From NCBI RefSeq assembly GCF_046105845.1, contig NZ_CP151004.1: a DNA stretch of 64,000 nucleotides; one strand, 5' to 3'. Position numbers and translations under genes: made by a program. Each line of letters starts with the position of its first letter. The first letter of the stretch is position 1. Of the stretch, positions 10,427 through 19,037 are shown piece by piece. The notes under the pieces were generated by a model. That model was not told the DNA's origin, made no database searches, and saw nothing but the letters and a program-made list of their open reading frames with translations. This DNA comes from Escherichia coli. GTDB lineage: Bacteria; Pseudomonadota; Gammaproteobacteria; Enterobacterales; Enterobacteriaceae.

Positions 10427-11287
10427 TTAAGATGCCTTTCTAATCAACCGATGCCCCTCATTCATCATCAGGATTTTGCTATACACATCTTCCTCGACGG
10501 CGTTTTTTGCTGATGCCATCACTCGTGCCAGATTCGCCTCGTTGTGATTATTCACATACGCTTTGCCGACGGCGGTGATAAACGCTTTGCGCAGATCGCT
10601 GGCGATATTTACTTTAGCGACGTGATAATTAACAAAGCTGCGCAATATCTCCGGGGCGATACCGGAGCCGCCGTGAATAACCAACGGCACCGGACAGACT
10701 TCGGCAATGCGCTTCAGCAAGGGGATATCGATCCGCGGTATATCGTCCAGACCATGAACGTTACCAATAGAAACTGCCAGCATGTCGCAACCGGTGCGCT
10801 CGACAAAGGTCTTCACCTTTTCCGGTTCCGTTTTGCAATCGGCTTCGCTGACGTGATCATCTTCTTTGCCGAGAATCGCCCCCAGCTCCGCTTCAACCGG
10901 TACGCCATAGGATTTACAGAAATCGACAGCTTCCTGGGTGAAAGCGATATTCTCTTCAAAAGAGAATGCGGCACCGTCAATCATGACCGAGGTAAAGCCC
11001 GCGCGCACCGCCTGTTTAACATCCTCCTGAGTTTTCCCGTGATCCAGATGAAGACTGACCGGAACATCCATTTTATCGGCGTGACGTTTCACGATTTCAT
11101 AAATGTAATCGTATCCCGAGAGTTGTGCATTGGTGGGCGCAATCTGAATGAAGTTGGGTAATCCTGAACGCTCAATGGCGTTTAAAATTGAAATCGTCGT
11201 CTCCAGATTGGTGGTATTAAACGCGCCCGCTAATACCCGTTTTTCCTGAATGCGGTCGAGCAGTATCCGTCCATTAACTAATGGCAT
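10427..11287 (-). CDS. Class II ketose-bisphosphate aldolase (FbaA/GatY/KbaY family)
   Basis: 286-aa ORF with LLDRIQEKRVLAGAFN, LHLDHG and VIHGGSG motifs typical of class II zinc aldolases; GAGG SD upstream. Confidence 0.8.
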   Translation of the reverse strand: MPLVNGRILLDRIQEKRVLAGAFNTTNLETTISILNAIERSGLPNFIQIAPTNAQLSGYDYIYEIVKRHADKMDVPVSLHLDHGKTQEDVKQAVRAGFTSVMIDGAAFSFEENIAFTQEAVDFCKSYGVPVEAELGAILGKEDDHVSEADCKTEPEKVKTFVERTGCDMLAVSIGNVHGLDDIPRIDIPLLKRIAEVCPVPLVIHGGSGIAPEILRSFVNYHVAKVNIASDLRKAFITAVGKAYVNNHNEANLARVMASAKNAVEEDVYSKILMMNEGHRLIRKAS

Positions 11288-11317
11288 TTGAAAACCTCAT
11301 CTTTTAATATCAGTTAA

Positions 11318-11587
11318 TTATTCAGCTTCACCGAAGCGGTCACGAAATAAGGCGGTGAGAGTTTGTATTGCCTCATTTTCATCATCGCCTTCGCAGCGTA
11401 TTTCCACCGTTTTACCGCCTTTTATTCCGGCGCGCATAATATTCATCATGCTGGTGGCATTAATATCATTACCCTCATAATGCAGCGTCACTTTACAGCT
11501 AAACTTTTTGGCGGCTTTTACCAGACAAGCCGCCGGACGTGCATGCAGGCCAGTACTGTTTCTGACCTCCACGGTTTTACTCAACAT
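11318..11587 (-). CDS. HPr-family phosphocarrier protein (operon-encoded HPr paralog)
   Basis: 89-aa ORF with GLHARPA (His15) and a Ser at position 46; GGAGG SD upstream; overlaps the 3' end of the kinase gene by 11 bp. Confidence 0.75.
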   Translation of the reverse strand: MLSKTVEVRNSTGLHARPAACLVKAAKKFSCKVTLHYEGNDINATSMMNIMRAGIKGGKTVEIRCEGDDENEAIQTLTALFRDRFGEAE

Positions 11588-13085
11588 AGTGCTCCTCCCG
11601 ATGGTGTAATGGCATCACGCCTTCTTGCTGTAATTTCAACTGATACCAGCTTTTCCATTTGTGCTGATAACGCTGTAATTGATGGTATCTCGCCCGATTC
11701 GGTAACAAACGTTGGGCTATGGTAACTTGCGGCGGTGGAATATCCGGTGCGGCAGTTAATAATGCTCCGACAGAAACCGCCTCGTTAAATGCAATTGCCT
11801 CAACCGGACGCTGTAAAATATCCGCCTTTAATTGCAGCCAAAGGGGATTATGGGTTGCCGGGCCGATTACTTTTAACGCGCTGGTGCCAGGCACATTAAA
11901 ACAGGCGAAGCAGTTGGCAAATTCCATGGTTAATCCCAGTGAGACGCTGGCAATTAACATGTCAATATTTAACGTATCGCTAAGCCCATAAAATAATCCA
12001 CGGGTATGGCGATTTTTATAGGGCGAACCCGAACCGCGAAGATGTGGAATAAAGAGGGGAATGTCATCGAGCGACCAGTTCCCCGCCAGGTAATCCGCAT
12101 GTCCGCGAGTAAGTGATGCGGCGATCTCCTCATCGGTTAGCCGGAACGTGTTACGCAGCCACTCCAGAGCGAAACCGCCCACGGGCAGCGACGCAAACAG
12201 GGTGAACTGGTTTGCAAGCGAATAACAGCCGTTTGCCAGCTTGTCACGTTTGGCCTGTTCATCCAGCGTCGGTTGTGTATCCAGTTGCAGAATGCCTTCT
12301 GTGGTCCCCGTCGAGTTAAGGATATCGCCCGGCATCATCTGCAACGCCCGTGCACCCACCATATGGTCATGTCCGGCCAGCGTCACGCTGACCGGTTGCG
12401 AGAACCCAAGCGTTTTGCAGAGCGACTCGCTGACCCATCCGGCGTGTTCGCCTGGCTGCACCAATGGCGCAAATGCTGAACAGGGAACGTGTAACAACGC
12501 CGCCGCTTTCGCTGACCATTCGCCTTTGCGCACGTCCAGACACAGCGTGCGGCTGGCTAAGGTGATATCCGTGCGCTGTTCGCCGGTCAGCCGCCAGAGC
12601 AGTACTTCCGGCGCATGTAGCCAACGCAGGCCGCGGCGATTACGCAGTGGGTAATGTTCCAGCAACCAACGCATTTTGAAGGCAGAGTAATTGCTGTGCA
12701 GCGGTAACCCGCAAATGTCATAAAGTGCCGCACTGTCTGCCTCGCTAAGTGTAGCCAGATACTCTTCACCGCGACGGTCATACCAGGCCAGCATTGGCGT
12801 CAGGATCTCGCCATGCTCGTCAAGGAACACGCCTGACTCGCCAAAACTGGCAATGCTTATCCGCCTGACTGGCAGCGGCGAAGCGGCGTTCAGTTGCGCT
12901 ATCGCCTGGCGGACCTCCTGCCAGAGGGCGTCGATATCGAAATCGACATCGCCCTGTGGGGAGATCTGTTTTGCCGTCACGAATTTATGCGCGCCCAACG
13001 TCGTTGCGTCCAGGCAGGAAAAGCAGGTGACTTTGCAATTGGTGGTGCCAATATCGATAACGATAGCTGCGCTGTTATCAGGCAT
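11577..13085 (-). CDS. FGGY-family carbohydrate kinase
   Basis: 502-aa ORF with N-terminal AIVIDIGTTNCKV (FGGY phosphate-1 motif) and two-domain actin-like fold size; overlaps the EIIC stop by 8 bp. Confidence 0.8.
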   Translation of the reverse strand: MPDNSAAIVIDIGTTNCKVTCFSCLDATTLGAHKFVTAKQISPQGDVDFDIDALWQEVRQAIAQLNAASPLPVRRISIASFGESGVFLDEHGEILTPMLAWYDRRGEEYLATLSEADSAALYDICGLPLHSNYSAFKMRWLLEHYPLRNRRGLRWLHAPEVLLWRLTGEQRTDITLASRTLCLDVRKGEWSAKAAALLHVPCSAFAPLVQPGEHAGWVSESLCKTLGFSQPVSVTLAGHDHMVGARALQMMPGDILNSTGTTEGILQLDTQPTLDEQAKRDKLANGCYSLANQFTLFASLPVGGFALEWLRNTFRLTDEEIAASLTRGHADYLAGNWSLDDIPLFIPHLRGSGSPYKNRHTRGLFYGLSDTLNIDMLIASVSLGLTMEFANCFACFNVPGTSALKVIGPATHNPLWLQLKADILQRPVEAIAFNEAVSVGALLTAAPDIPPPQVTIAQRLLPNRARYHQLQRYQHKWKSWYQLKLQQEGVMPLHHREEHYVE

Positions 13086-14436
13086 AAACCGTGCTCCGCG
13101 TCATTCGGAAAATACCATACAGTACCAGGGCGATAACCGGCACCAGACCAATGGCGATGAGATTGCCGTTGAAGATTTCCAGCAGCCAGAAGCGGAACGG
13201 GTTACCGCCATCAAGGAAACTGGAGACCTGGCCGCTGGAGCCTTCGGCAAATTTGAAATTAACGTCTTTCGCCATTCCGGTAATAAACGGCGCGATTTTA
13301 GTCGCAATCCACAGATCGGCAATAATCACCGGGATCGCCGCCAGAACGGTGCGGAAAATGTTGCCACGGCTGGCTAAAGCAATCATCGACGCCATTACCG
13401 CCAGGTTGGCAAGGTCGCCAAGCGGCAGGACTTCATTACCCGGAAGGACAAACGCGATAAAGACCGAGATTGGCGTCAGCAGCAGGGCGGTGGAGATAAT
13501 CGCCGGGTTACCTACGGCAACGGCGATATCCAGGCCGATATAGAGATCGTCACGGTCAGGGTATTTGGCATTGAGATACTTTTTAATGGCTTCAGACAGC
13601 GGTAATAAACCTTCCATCAGGATGCGTACCATGCGTGGCAGGATGAACATCACACCGCCAATGCTGATGCCAAGCAGCAAGACTTTTTTGAAATCGTATC
13701 CGGCAATTACGCCGAGCAGAATGCCCAGAATAGTACCAACCATCATCGGTTCGCCGAATATGCCAAACTTTTTCTGTACGGTTTCCGGATCGATATGAAT
13801 ACGATTGAGGCCGGGGATATGGTCGATGATTTTGTCGACCAGCAGACCGACCGGAAAGAACACCACCGAAGAGAGCGTCGGCAATGAGATCCCTTCCAGG
13901 CCAAAGTATTTTTGTACCAGTGGCGCAGACCAGTCGGCGAGTTTAAGTACTACCACCGCAGCAATCGCCGCCGCCAGTAAACCAAAAAACAGGCTGCCGG
14001 TGCTGTAATAAACCAGCGTACCAGCAAGGGCAAAATGCCAGTAGTTCCACATATCTACATCAACGGTGCGGGTTTTATTTAACGCCAGCATCGCCACGTT
14101 AATCAGAATAGTCAGGGGAATAACAAACGGGGCAATTGGCGAACCCCATGTAATAGCGGAAAGCGGCGGCCAGCCTAAATCCACCACCGGTAAATTAATT
14201 CCGGTGCGTTCAACCATCGCCTGGGCCGCTGGCCCGACATTGCTGGTAAGAATATCGAAAATGGCATAAATACCGACAAAACCAATGCCGACCGTTAATG
14301 ACGAACGTAAGGCTTTAGCGGGTTTTACTTTAAAACAGAGAGCAAGAATAAATAACACCAACGGCAACATTACCGTGGGACCAAATCCCAATATATATTG
14401 CACTATATTATAGAGGGTATGCGCGATATCGTTCAT
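13078..14436 (-). CDS. PTS galactitol-family EIIC permease
   Basis: Track ORF 13078..14466 (GTG); start refined to ATG 14436 with AAGAGG SD; multi-TM protein colinear with GatC (LGPTVMLP, GIGFVGI, GEP motifs). Confidence 0.85.
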   Translation of the reverse strand: MNDIAHTLYNIVQYILGFGPTVMLPLVLFILALCFKVKPAKALRSSLTVGIGFVGIYAIFDILTSNVGPAAQAMVERTGINLPVVDLGWPPLSAITWGSPIAPFVIPLTILINVAMLALNKTRTVDVDMWNYWHFALAGTLVYYSTGSLFFGLLAAAIAAVVVLKLADWSAPLVQKYFGLEGISLPTLSSVVFFPVGLLVDKIIDHIPGLNRIHIDPETVQKKFGIFGEPMMVGTILGILLGVIAGYDFKKVLLLGISIGGVMFILPRMVRILMEGLLPLSEAIKKYLNAKYPDRDDLYIGLDIAVAVGNPAIISTALLLTPISVFIAFVLPGNEVLPLGDLANLAVMASMIALASRGNIFRTVLAAIPVIIADLWIATKIAPFITGMAKDVNFKFAEGSSGQVSSFLDGGNPFRFWLLEIFNGNLIAIGLVPVIALVLYGIFRMTRSTVYA

Positions 14437-14450
14437 AATAAACCTCTTTT

Positions 14451-14483
14451 TCAGGCGAGAGCGCACCTCGCGTTAGCGCCTGA
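14451..14483 (-). other. Intra-operon stem-loop between PTS EIIB and EIIC genes
   Basis: TCAGGCG...CGCCTGA 7-bp stem enclosing a GC-rich sub-hairpin, in the 76-bp EIIB-EIIC spacer. Confidence 0.35.
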
Positions 14484-14512
14484 TGGAGTGGGTTGAAATT
14501 AATTATTATTAA

Positions 14513-14794
14513 TTACTTTTTAAGGATCGAAACAATTTGCGCCAGTACTTTCTCTTCGCCAATACCGGTAATAATCGGCAAGCCGTTAACCACCGGGACG
14601 TCGAGTTCATAAGGCACTTTAGTCGTTGAGACTACCAGTGCTACGCCATCAGTATTTCCAGGTAAAGAGGCAACGTTGGTTTGGGAATAATTGACGTTAA
14701 GACCGTGCTCTTTACAATATTCCATGACTTTTTCTGTTACCGCCGTGGATGTGGCAATACCCGTGGCGCAGACAAATAAAATGGTTTGACTCAT
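14513..14794 (-). CDS. PTS galactitol-family EIIB component
   Basis: 93-aa ORF with ILFVCATGIATS (phosphoryl-Cys loop) resembling GatB. Confidence 0.8.
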   Translation of the reverse strand: MSQTILFVCATGIATSTAVTEKVMEYCKEHGLNVNYSQTNVASLPGNTDGVALVVSTTKVPYELDVPVVNGLPIITGIGEEKVLAQIVSILKK

Positions 14795-15264
14795 ATTTCA
14801 CCTCGTTCTTTCATTTTGTTTAAGATTACTGTGTGTATTTCTGTTGTTTCCATCGTAAGCAGGGCGCGCATAAAGGGCGTATCCTGAATCATCTCCATAA
14901 TCCAGCCCAGGGCATTTAATTGTTTATTACTTTCGCTTAAGGCGAGCAAAAAAATCACCCTGACAGGTACGGGGTCAGGATCGCCGCCCATATCGGCAAA
15001 CTCTACCGGTTCCGGCAGGATGCCGACGGCAATTGCATTGTGCCTGACATGTTTATGGTCCGTGTGCGGAATGGCGACACACGGTGGTTCGGTAGGCAGC
15101 CCCGTTGGGTACGTCGCCTCACGTTTCAGTACGTGATCGGCAAAATCAGGGACCACCAGCTCGGCGGCAACCAACGGTTGCGCTAACTGACGGATGATCT
15201 GTTCAACGCTTAACCCTGCCGGAAGTCGTTGAATATAATTTTCCTGAAACTGTATGCCTTGCAT
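14791..15264 (-). CDS. PTS EIIA component (mannitol/fructose/galactitol type fold)
   Basis: 157-aa ORF with CVAIPHTDHKH active-site His region resembling GatA; 4-bp overlap with the EIIB start. Confidence 0.8.
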   Translation of the reverse strand: MQGIQFQENYIQRLPAGLSVEQIIRQLAQPLVAAELVVPDFADHVLKREATYPTGLPTEPPCVAIPHTDHKHVRHNAIAVGILPEPVEFADMGGDPDPVPVRVIFLLALSESNKQLNALGWIMEMIQDTPFMRALLTMETTEIHTVILNKMKERGEI

Positions 15265-15288
15265 TTTATTCCTCTTAAAAAAGTGTAC

Positions 15289-16035
15289 TTAACTCACTTC
15301 CCGCCGTTGCAGCACGGTGCCCAGATAATATTTATTTCCTTTTAACCAGACGTTGCCAAACTCAACGGGTAACTCTCGGGAGAAAAAGACTAACTGCTCC
15401 AGATGCAAAACGGGTGCATCTTCACTGATATCTAAAAAATGACCGCGTTCATTACCAATTAATCGCGCGGCATAGCGACTTTCAGAGTAACGAATTTTTC
15501 TTTGCGACAAACTTTCTATTGTTGGAAATAAATTGTGTTGATTAAAATCGATTTCCACGATGCCGGGACATAGCTCAATATTGATACGGTTCTCTATCAG
15601 CATCGCTTTTTCATCACCAATTGAACGTAACCGCTCAAGGTAAAGAATATCCTGACCGGGCGTTATTCTTAATTTCTCTGCCACATAACGATTAGCCGGT
15701 TCAATCCGTGACGTAATAACTTCAGTGGTAAAGTGTATTTTCTGGCTTTCCAGCGATTCCGCGAATGACAATAATCCTTCACCTAACGGATATGCCACGT
15801 TCTCTTTTTTGACAAATGTTCCCTTCCCCTGGACCTGAATCAACACGCCTTCTTTTACCAGTTGGGCGACCGCTTTTTTAACGGTTCCCCGACTCACTTC
15901 CAGCATATCCATAATCTGGTATTCCGAAGGAATGCGATCGTCTTCCACCAGATCCCCGGTATAAATACTTTCTCTTATCCACTCCACCACTTGTTGATAG
16001 AGCGGTATTTGTGACGACTTACTTAATGATTTCAT
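15289..16035 (-). CDS. GntR/HutC-family transcriptional regulator (HTH + UTRA effector domain)
   Basis: Track ORF 15289..16044 (GTG); start refined to ATG 16035 (AGGTG upstream); N-terminal wHTH (IPSEYQIMDMLEVSRGTVKKAVAQLVKEGVL) and C-terminal UTRA-like domain. Confidence 0.8.
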   Translation of the reverse strand: MKSLSKSSQIPLYQQVVEWIRESIYTGDLVEDDRIPSEYQIMDMLEVSRGTVKKAVAQLVKEGVLIQVQGKGTFVKKENVAYPLGEGLLSFAESLESQKIHFTTEVITSRIEPANRYVAEKLRITPGQDILYLERLRSIGDEKAMLIENRINIELCPGIVEIDFNQHNLFPTIESLSQRKIRYSESRYAARLIGNERGHFLDISEDAPVLHLEQLVFFSRELPVEFGNVWLKGNKYYLGTVLQRREVS

Positions 16036-16058
16036 GGCGCGCACCTGAACATTTACAG

Positions 16059-16072
16059 TTGTCTATGGACAA
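16059..16072. promoter_or_regulatory. Palindrome TTGTC-TATG-GACAA upstream of the island GntR/HutC regulator gene; candidate operator
   Basis: Perfect 5-bp inverted arms 24 bp upstream of the regulator ATG, followed by a third TGGACAA half-site at 16076-16082. Confidence 0.4.
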
Positions 16073-16233
16073 TCATGGACAACTTCAAGCGTATAGTAGG
16101 TGAACGGGAGAAAAAGAGGATCGAAGCGTCTCACATTTTGAGGGACCAAATCGTGATCAAAAAAATGTGACGTGAGTCGATATTTGTCAGAAGTTTACTG
16201 CGCCGTAAGGAAATAACGGCGCGTTGGTAGGTG

Positions 16234-19037
<2,804 letters not shown>

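Follow-up and report, generated by a model that had tools for sequence, protein, structure and literature searches.

How does a sugar phosphotransferase system (PTS) operon bring its substrate to a class II aldolase when the only kinase that it encodes belongs to the FGGY family? The question is raised by seven genes (10427-16035, minus strand) in a 64-kb stretch of an Escherichia chromosome, referred to here as the window, which is collinear with E. coli from yhiM to ugpQ. An earlier, sequence-only reading had described the interval 10427-15264 as a PTS operon with a non-canonical enzyme set (galactitol-type Enzyme II [EII] components, an FGGY kinase, an HPr-like protein, and a class II aldolase) and with a pathway logic that was unclear and perhaps undescribed. 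Its five named proteins were all recovered on the minus strand, and its description of the genes in that interval was accurate; left out were the first gene of the operon, a regulator (15289-16035), and the promoter/operator region (16057-16180). Here, we report that the EIIC, kinase, and aldolase genes of this operon form a module that recurs across several phyla, and we propose a pathway like those of gat and tagatose, to which we give an even chance: the PTS would deliver a ketose monophosphate, the FGGY kinase would add a second phosphate, and the aldolase would split the product into two triose phosphates.

The kinase gene (11577-13085, minus strand) encodes an FGGY-family carbohydrate kinase of a distinct clade. 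The protein matched Pfam domains FGGY_N (PF00370, 2.8e-44, residues 7-245) and FGGY_C (PF02782, 5.7e-24, residues 257-446), and no PfkB match was found in Pfam or NCBIfam. It reached none of the NCBIfam equivalog cutoffs for XylB, GlpK, FucK, RhaB, GntK, LsrK, or AraB; the best score was to XylB (147 bits, cutoff 380), followed by GlpK (129, cutoff 590), FucK (119, cutoff 471), and RhaB (59, cutoff 528). The label "L-fuculokinase," attached to this kinase in some genomes, is unsupported at those FucK values. An AlphaFold2 model (predicted local distance difference test score, 92) was matched by Foldseek to xylulokinase, glycerol kinase, and gluconate kinase folds (3ifr, 3g25, 2itm, 3ezw, and others) at template modeling scores of 0.80 to 0.85 and no more than 23% identity, which confirmed the FGGY fold and gave no functionally closer neighbour. 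Solved structures likewise included no close relative, the best phmmer match (E value, 7e-25) being glycerol kinase. By sequence and predicted fold, the kinase is FGGY, not PfkB, with the two-domain actin-like ATPase fold of glycerol kinase and xylulokinase. The sequence-only reading had named an FGGY protein as the sole kinase, and this withstood Pfam, NCBIfam, and AlphaFold2/Foldseek, with no PfkB/ribokinase-like result on profile search and no other kinase open reading frame (ORF) in the island. Also borne out was its claim that dehydrogenase and GatZ-like genes are missing: among the ORFs and PGAP annotations between yhhJ and nikR, there was no PfkB kinase, no dehydrogenase, and no GatZ-like ORF.

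Some motifs of the kinase resemble those of ketose 1-kinases. The N-terminal D-x-G-T-T phosphate-binding motif is present, D11, G13, T15, and K18 are invariant, and D240 aligns with the catalytic-region Asp of GlpK, XylB, FucK, and RhaB. AGHDHM and LNSTGTTE are motifs of the clade. AGHDHM, together with FGESG, resembles the E. coli ketose 1-kinases (AGHDTQ/FGVDG in FucK and ASHDTA/WGVDF in RhaB), whereas other FGGY kinases differ at the former motif (GGGDNA in XylB and AGDQQA in GlpK). The glycerol contacts of GlpK, which we take to be Arg83, Tyr135, and Phe270, are not kept, the aligned kinase residues being Gly, Asn, and Glu/Gly.

To place the kinase in context, 15 members of its clade were aligned, one genome per species was scanned, and all neighbouring ORFs were clustered. 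A Gat-type EIIC gene lay within 7 kb of the kinase gene in 61 of 77 species loci. All 61 PTS-linked loci held exactly one FGGY gene and no PfkB gene within 7 kb, and 60 carried an aldolase of the PRK07998-type subfamily; an HPr gene was present in 31, and one to three Zn-dependent dehydrogenase genes were present in 21. In almost every PTS-linked locus, the kinase gene is the one immediately after the EIIC gene, and the 8-bp overlap of the two genes recurs in 28 of 62 loci. This arrangement of EIIC, kinase, and aldolase is far beyond chance, and it spans Enterobacterales, Gilliamella, Enterococcus, Lactobacillaceae, Bacillaceae, Negativicutes, and Coriobacteriia.

The PTS-linked loci fall into two types, written here with R for regulator, A/B/C for the EII components, K for kinase, H for HPr, Y for aldolase, and D for dehydrogenase. 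Type 1, without a dehydrogenase, has the order R-A-B-C-K-(H-Y or Y-H) in Escherichia, Citrobacter, Salmonella, Klebsiella oxytoca, Cedecea, Rahnella, Trabulsiella, and others and, without HPr, R-Y-A-B-C-K in Enterococcus, Listeria, Lacticaseibacillus, Pediococcus, Enterobacter cancerogenus, and a Pantoea; in Pectinatus, a PRD/Mga-type activator takes the place of GntR. The genes that flank type 1 vary from genus to genus, and the unit is therefore read as a mobile, self-sufficient module. Type 2 has the order A-B-C-K-D-R-Y-H-(SurE)-D in Pantoea, Erwinia, Raoultella, and Serratia and M-A-B-B-C-D-Y-K-D-(D)-H in Bacillus-type loci. In each tested locus (L006 of Pantoea and L062, Bacillus type), one dehydrogenase had as its best match GatD, galactitol-1-phosphate 5-dehydrogenase (232 to 238 bits, cutoff 550). 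Because sister clusters carry GatD-like dehydrogenases, the pathway logic is partly explained. Actinobacterial loci lack a PTS and have the aldolase and kinase genes beside ATP-binding cassette (ABC) transporter genes, sometimes with one or two further FGGY paralogs (two or three FGGY genes in four loci and a single one in other loci).

Several of these loci have further features. A SurE-type 5'/3'-nucleotidase/phosphatase (285.7 bits, cutoff 233) is encoded in nine dehydrogenase-bearing clusters (L006, L040, L048, L049, L052, L073, L075, L083, and L084). In Enterococcus raffinosus, E. malodoratus, and E. avium (L033 to L035, ~10.8 to 19 kb), a second module directly downstream of the Gat-type module comprises an aldolase of the same family, a PRD/Mga-type regulator, a four-component mannose-type PTS, and a Zn-dependent dehydrogenase; an XylB-like FGGY gene follows it in L033 and L034 (355 bits against 380 in L034), and the L035 stretch ends before that point. 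In Demequina and Microbacteriaceae (L061 and L063), three tandem full-length FGGY paralogs follow the aldolase gene beside a polyol-type ABC transporter, one from the clade of the operon kinase, one XylB-like, and a third with a GHDHP motif.

The aldolase gene (10427-11287, minus strand) encodes a class II zinc-dependent ketose-phosphate aldolase of the F_bP_aldolase fold and the PRK07998 subfamily. It passed the cutoffs of NF005943, an equivalog with no name more specific than "class II aldolase" (556.6 bits, cutoff 364), and TIGR00167 (221.6, cutoff 215.6), and it fell below all equivalog cutoffs for GatY (240, cutoff 383), KbaY (183, cutoff 542), and fructose-bisphosphate aldolase (FBA). 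Residues D82, H83, H178, H205, and E142 show 100% conservation and match the catalytic and zinc residues of GatY/KbaY in the alignment; the G140-K-E-D-D loop, K225, and N227 are kept as well. Two motifs are FBA-like (HLDHG and GFTSVMID, where GatY/KbaY instead have HLDHH and GVRSVMID), and GKEDD is a GatY-like feature, so that for a fructose- versus tagatose-bisphosphate assignment, the motifs are an FBA-like and GatY-like mix with an APTN of their own. R255 corresponds to the Arg in the DPR motif of GatY/KbaY, which presumably binds the distal phosphate; most members have R or K here. The aldolases of dehydrogenase-free and dehydrogenase-bearing clusters are near-identical in all active-site motifs. 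This aldolase fold is known to give 3S products, which makes bisphosphates of the D-tagatose, L-sorbose, L-psicose, or fructose type, or a heptulose, plausible substrates.

The transporter is encoded by genes for EIIA (14791-15264, minus strand; PTS_EIIA_2 type, phosphorylatable His67), EIIB (14513-14794, minus strand; phosphorylatable Cys9), and EIIC (13078-14436, minus strand), with a 4-bp overlap between the first two and an 8-bp overlap between the EIIC and kinase genes. The EIIC ORF extends over 13078-14466, and the start annotated by PGAP in E. coli genomes corresponds to 14436. EIIC matched TIGR00827 end to end (476 bits, subfamily cutoff 542), with Pfam PF03611 in orthologs, and is not a GatC ortholog. 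EIIB scored 60 against a cutoff of 95 for GatB, and EIIA scored 57 against 139 for GatA, with the FruA-IIA and PtsN models also below their cutoffs. His67 of EIIA and Cys9 of EIIB are each invariant in 64 homologs, as are Gly12, Thr15, and Ser16 of EIIB. Judged from these sequences, EIIABC is a system of the PTS galactitol (Gat) family (TC 4.A.5) with separate EIIA and EIIB proteins. The term "galactitol-type" used by the sequence-only reading thus holds for the family; it does not extend to a galactitol-specific GatABC, since GatA and GatB equivalog scores are below cutoff and the operon has no GatD. Its view of the set as non-canonical agrees with the scores, which assign the proteins to neither GatABC, GatY, nor KbaY.

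The HPr-family phosphocarrier paralog (11318-11587, minus strand) scored 105.9 bits to TIGR01003 (cutoff 47.9) and reached neither the PtsH (56.5, cutoff 153) nor the NPr (51.9, cutoff 119) model. The sequence-only reading had reported His15, Ser46, and an 11-bp overlap with the kinase gene, and all are there, the residues by direct count and the overlap at 11577-11587. His15 and the GLHARPA motif are invariant in 35 homologs. In the same 35, Ser46 occurs only in Escherichia, Citrobacter, and Bacillus copies and is Gly in Salmonella and most Enterobacterales, so a conserved Ser46 for regulation by HprK/P was not found. The HPr ATG is preceded, at a distance of 4 nt, by the Shine-Dalgarno sequence GGGAGGAG. 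The kinases of Escherichia and Citrobacter have a short C-terminal extension (...HHREEHYVE; 11577-11610, minus strand) that is absent in other orthologs, and whose codons contain both this Shine-Dalgarno sequence and the beginning of the HPr gene; it has the look of a by-product of the insertion of HPr at this point. The more economical role for the paralog, by analogy with FPr or TagH, would be that of a dedicated phosphocarrier to EIIA.

From gene content, protein families, intact catalytic and phosphorelay residues, and the conservation of the module and its 5' control region, we infer the biochemical steps, the specificity of the kinase for a phosphorylated sugar, the effector of the regulator, and the class of sugar. 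Phosphate would pass from phosphoenolpyruvate to Enzyme I, to the HPr paralog or general HPr, and on to His67 of EIIA and Cys9 of EIIB. The sugar would enter through the Gat-family EIIC and arrive as a terminal monophosphate. The FGGY kinase, its gene translationally coupled to that of EIIC, would then use ATP to phosphorylate the other terminal hydroxyl, probably at C1 as FucK and RhaB do with free ketoses, giving a ketose 1,6-bisphosphate, and the class II aldolase would cleave this bisphosphate to dihydroxyacetone phosphate (DHAP) and glyceraldehyde 3-phosphate. On this reading, the cluster would be a catabolic operon that is self-contained and moves horizontally, with a ketose (in the simplest case, a ketohexose) as its substrate and an FGGY kinase in place of PfkA, PfkB, or LacC. 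The kinase would have to make a bisphosphate because the PTS delivers a sugar phosphate, and kinase and DHAP-type aldolase would otherwise form an incomplete route; action on a ketose phosphate is also suggested because type 2 clusters mirror gat (hexitol-phosphate dehydrogenase, kinase, and aldolase) with FGGY as the sole kinase. A 1-kinase acting on the PTS product would agree with the recurrent coupling to EIIC and with the H-D and FGxxG motifs that the kinase has in common with FucK and RhaB. Recognition of an anionic substrate would fit four positions (K39, H130, H348, and K484) at which 62 PTS-linked kinases are basic, the first three being conserved, and 6 ABC-transporter-linked actinobacterial kinases are neutral; H130 sits two residues away from the position that aligns with Tyr135 of GlpK.

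Several points weigh against this proposal. We know of no FGGY kinase that takes a phosphorylated sugar, and no report of one was found in the literature searched. The contrast in basic residues between PTS-linked and ABC-transporter-linked kinases is confounded with phylogeny (6 sequences from one phylum). In the aldolase, a conserved A50-P51-T52-N53 replaces the S-E-G of FBA and the T-P-G of GatY, making the distal pocket like neither, and position 255 is S or N in Bacillus-type (Bacillaceae) and Lactobacillaceae/Sporolactobacillus members. The distal phosphate site is only a candidate because this basic residue varies and APTN stands in the place of the Ser or Thr of the second contact. Two actinobacterial loci (L047 and L066) pair kinase and aldolase with an ABC transporter and have a single FGGY gene; there, the kinase could therefore act on the free sugar and the aldolase on a monophosphate. 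In other actinobacterial loci, the extra FGGY is near true XylB (318 to 330 bits, cutoff 380) and may belong to a separate pentitol pathway.

If the kinase does not act on a sugar phosphate, it could act after the aldolase or beside the PTS, and we regard both as unlikely. By a route like fructolysis, the PTS would form a ketose 1-phosphate, the aldolase would release DHAP and an unphosphorylated aldehyde (e.g., glyceraldehyde), and the FGGY protein would be a glycerol-kinase-like triose kinase. FGGY substrates are normally unphosphorylated, GlpK is among the best sequence and fold matches, the distal pocket of the aldolase is unlike that of bisphosphate aldolases (with a basic residue that is not universal), and E. 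coli YdjI, a homolog of the aldolase (150.6 bits), is annotated for a ketose 1-monophosphate. Dehydrogenase-bearing clusters are compatible with this route as well, since Zn-dependent dehydrogenases that act next to a phosphorylated carbon exist, such as sorbose-1-phosphate reductase. A triose kinase fits poorly with a protein that lacks the aligned glycerol-binding residues of GlpK and has FucK/RhaB-like sugar motifs instead, and with a gene that is coupled to EIIC rather than to the aldolase; moreover, in the PTS-free loci L047 and L066, the kinase is the sole candidate for making the aldolase substrate and must phosphorylate the sugar itself. It is similarly improbable that the kinase takes free sugar in parallel to the PTS, as a second entry or salvage route, with the HPr paralog mainly serving as its regulator. 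HPr regulates LsrK, and HPr~P regulates (activates) Gram-positive GlpK; the HPr gene of Escherichia and Citrobacter starts 11 bp inside the 3' end of the kinase gene, behind a strong Shine-Dalgarno sequence of its own, actinobacterial kinase-aldolase pairs are found with no PTS, and nine dehydrogenase-bearing loci encode the SurE-type phosphatase. The partnership of HPr and kinase at which the sequence-only reading had hinted is not general, however: HPr is absent from 30 of the 61 PTS-linked loci (among them every copy from Enterococcus, Listeria, and Negativicutes), its gene comes after that of the aldolase rather than that of the kinase in Salmonella and the majority of other genera, and Gly mostly takes the place of Ser46. 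As read from its sequence, the kinase also has no His at the position of the phosphorylation loop of Gram-positive GlpK, and PTS and aldolase alone would be incomplete without a second phosphorylation.

Least probable, in our judgement, is a plain second galactitol or D-tagatose PTS pathway, as implied by the database name "PTS galactitol transporter subunit IIC" and by the naming of Z4875-Z4877 as a galactitol transporter in E. coli O157:H7 (PMC6199705). The best named matches of EIIC, EIIB, and EIIA are indeed GatC, GatB, and GatA, and D-tagatose 1,6-bisphosphate would be the most economical guess at the aldolase substrate if the 3S stereochemistry holds. Scores to GatA, GatB, GatY, and KbaY are nonetheless far below the curated cutoffs, the aldolase motifs are FBA-like rather than those of GatY/KbaY, and the cluster alone cannot process galactitol because it has no galactitol-1-phosphate dehydrogenase. 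Tagatose is mildly disfavoured in that the module carriers Salmonella and Klebsiella oxytoca already have tagKTH, which we take to be their separate system for D-tagatose. The species distribution (Enterococcus avium group, Pectinatus, Pantoea, and Gilliamella) neither supports nor excludes L-sorbose, D-psicose, D-tagatose, or heptuloses.

The proposed ketose-phosphate route has partial counterparts among known systems. Like the E. coli galactitol pathway (gatYZABCD, with the kinase step provided by PfkA), the operon combines a Gat-family EIIABC with what would be conversion of a ketose phosphate to a 1,6-bisphosphate and its cleavage to two triose phosphates by a class II aldolase of the F_bP_aldolase fold; unlike gat, it lacks GatD and GatZ, encodes an FGGY kinase within the cluster rather than relying on PfkA/PfkB, has a PRK07998 aldolase in place of GatY, and is headed by a GntR/HutC regulator where gat has the DeoR-type GatR. 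D-Tagatose is degraded through a PTS by tagKTH with gatYZ in Klebsiella oxytoca, Salmonella, and Bacillus licheniformis, and lacABCD forms the Gram-positive tagatose-6-phosphate pathway. These systems likewise take up a ketose or its precursor by a PTS, phosphorylate it a second time, and cleave a ketohexose bisphosphate, with TagH as a dedicated HPr-like carrier; they differ in that TagK and LacC are PfkB family kinases, TagT is a fructose-family EII, and LacD is a class I aldolase. The L-fucose (FucK/FucA) and L-rhamnose (RhaB/RhaD) pathways also pair an FGGY ketose 1-kinase with a metal-dependent, DHAP-forming aldolase, and their kinases share the catalytic H-D motif and the FGxxG motif, but they process unphosphorylated 6-deoxyketoses taken up by symporters, FucA and RhaD have the PF00596 fold, and global similarity of the kinases is low. 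The LsrK-HPr complex and HPr~P-activated GlpK are also associations of an FGGY kinase with HPr; these use general HPr, whereas the paralog of the operon is optional in the module and its gene usually lies apart from that of the kinase.

The first gene of the operon (15289-16035, minus strand) encodes a GntR/HutC-family regulator, with NCBIfam matches to GntR models of the HutC/PhnF/TreR type and Pfam GntR and UTRA domains in orthologs; its start at 16035 is indicated by a conserved AGGTG-N6-ATG and the PGAP annotation. The 190 bp upstream of the regulator gene are kept across genera despite different chromosomal contexts. In an alignment of the upstream regions of 16 orthologous loci, a proximal CRP-like site (TGTGAGACGCTTCGAT; 16120-16135, minus strand) keeps the GTGA core of the left half-site, which is TGTGA in 15 of the 16, and would lie ~41 nt upstream of the predicted transcription start, with the spacing to the -10 element likewise predicted. 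A -10-like hexamer, TACTAT (16093-16098, minus strand), is TAYYAT in the same alignment column of orthologs and was not called by a simple consensus promoter scan. A candidate distal CRP-like site is reduced to a remnant (16166-16180, minus strand): TGTGA-N6-TCACA is intact in most genera (Salmonella, Cedecea, Rahnella, Trabulsiella, and others; L002 and L012 to L027), and Escherichia and Citrobacter amalonaticus keep the right half TCACA only, the left half being degenerate. Catabolite control of the operon may thus differ between lineages with and without the distal left half-site.

Downstream of the promoter lies a candidate operator of the GntR/HutC regulator, AGTTGTCCATGATTGTCCATAGACAACT (16057-16084, minus strand), identified by conservation of a palindrome. 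The palindrome TTGTC-N4-GACAA (16059-16072) forms the core of the element AGTTGTMCATGATTGTCYATAGACAACT (16057-16084) and occurs twice in the window, against 0.12 occurrences expected. The operator palindrome TTGTCYATAGACAA is found in 18 orthologous loci, in different genera and at different chromosomal sites, always at the same distance to the regulator start. We read this region as a CRP-activated promoter that would be autoregulated by the GntR/HutC repressor at the candidate operator, with the repressor presumably released by a phosphorylated intermediate. The conserved CRP-like promoter and operator, as well as induction of the O157:H7 copy in bovine gut contents, are consistent with a catabolic operon.

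The seven genes, tightly packed in the same orientation, share an accessory island with hicAB between yhhJ (ending at 9674) and nikR (16234-16635). The HicA/HicB type II toxin-antitoxin pair (9746-10377, plus strand; PGAP names) adjoins the operon in the same accessory segment and is convergent with the aldolase gene; its ORFs had no NCBIfam match at an E value of ≤0.001, the hicA ORF searched being a shorter, N-terminally truncated version (9791-10021). A hairpin, ATAGCGGC...GCCGCTAT (10381-10413), found by direct reading of the sequence, separates the aldolase gene from hicB and is likely a bidirectional terminator; with its weak T-run, it was not called by a simple terminator scan. In the nearest E. 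coli genome (O169:H41; 98.8% identity across the island), the GntR gene and nikR are separated by an additional DUF3829 gene (L094, 16361-17341) that the window lacks (16045-16233). Further away, two paralogous low-GC (35 to 37%) genes (912-2501 and 2763-4385, plus strand) are annotated only as DUF4049 (yhiJ/yhiL-like), and both contain GD-x-TGDRF ... VLAGNHE, which resembles a calcineurin-type metallophosphoesterase signature.

The island is present at ≥80% coverage in 1,631 of 5,426 complete E. coli genomes (~30%), always on the chromosome, and lies between yhhJ and nikR also in IAI39 and, with one extra gene, in the O169:H41 strain. In O157:H7, the EII genes are Z4875-Z4877, which are labelled as a galactitol transporter and induced 2- to 4-fold in bovine rumen, small-intestine, and rectal contents (PMC6199705). 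The Salmonella enterica ortholog, STM3779-STM3785, comprises the same seven genes beside the uhp region, with a kinase that is 63% identical, and the 90%-identity cluster of the kinase contains 2,353 Salmonella member sequences. This island has been described in a comparative-genomics study of 2013 as AT rich, repressed by H-NS, acquired by the ancestor of subspecies enterica, and encoding "a complete PTS with unknown specificity" (PMC3604774), and in 2024 it was still placed under "unknown sugars," with STM3253-5 listed as "Tagatose" (PMC11000858). The operon is induced in chicken caecal communities as well. STM3779-STM3785 and O157:H7 Z4874-Z4880 (of which only Z4875-Z4877 are named in the paper) share the seven gene families and the conserved operator and are orthologous modules at different chromosomal sites; Salmonella differs in having the last two genes swapped (kinase-aldolase-HPr) and Gly46 in HPr. 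The vpe operon, considered as a match, is unrelated to the cluster. Public sources give only generic names for the operon proteins, and a full-text literature search found no functional study of the operon or its orthologs, no substrate assignment, and no pathway characterisation. The suggestion of the sequence-only reading that the pathway may be undescribed is in keeping with this, as no characterised pathway with the same gene content was found in the literature and the Salmonella ortholog is listed with unknown specificity. Already known were the PTS island in Salmonella and, under a mistaken label, the cluster in O157:H7; new are the kinase-aldolase cassette across phyla, the dehydrogenase-bearing sister clusters, the FucK/RhaB-like motifs, the conserved operator with its CRP-type promoter, and the proposal that an FGGY kinase acts on a ketose phosphate.

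More broadly, and with somewhat less than even confidence, we suggest that the kinase founds an FGGY clade of ketose-6-phosphate 1-kinases and that, with the PRK07998 aldolase, it forms a "lower pathway" cassette that several phyla would use downstream of ABC transporters or of a PTS of the Gat or mannose type, in some cases together with polyol-phosphate dehydrogenases; the substrate in E. coli and Salmonella would then be a gut-available ketose outside known pathways. E. coli and Salmonella are the best annotated of bacteria, yet this operon has no assigned substrate, and it may mark a nutrient niche relevant to pathogen colonisation. The comparative data (the three-enzyme core, the dehydrogenase-bearing sister clusters, and the operator) narrow the question to a few direct assays. 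Action of an FGGY kinase on a sugar phosphate, if true, would be a clean non-homologous replacement of PfkB/PfkA in a tagatose-like pathway and would extend the known chemistry of a large and much-studied kinase family.

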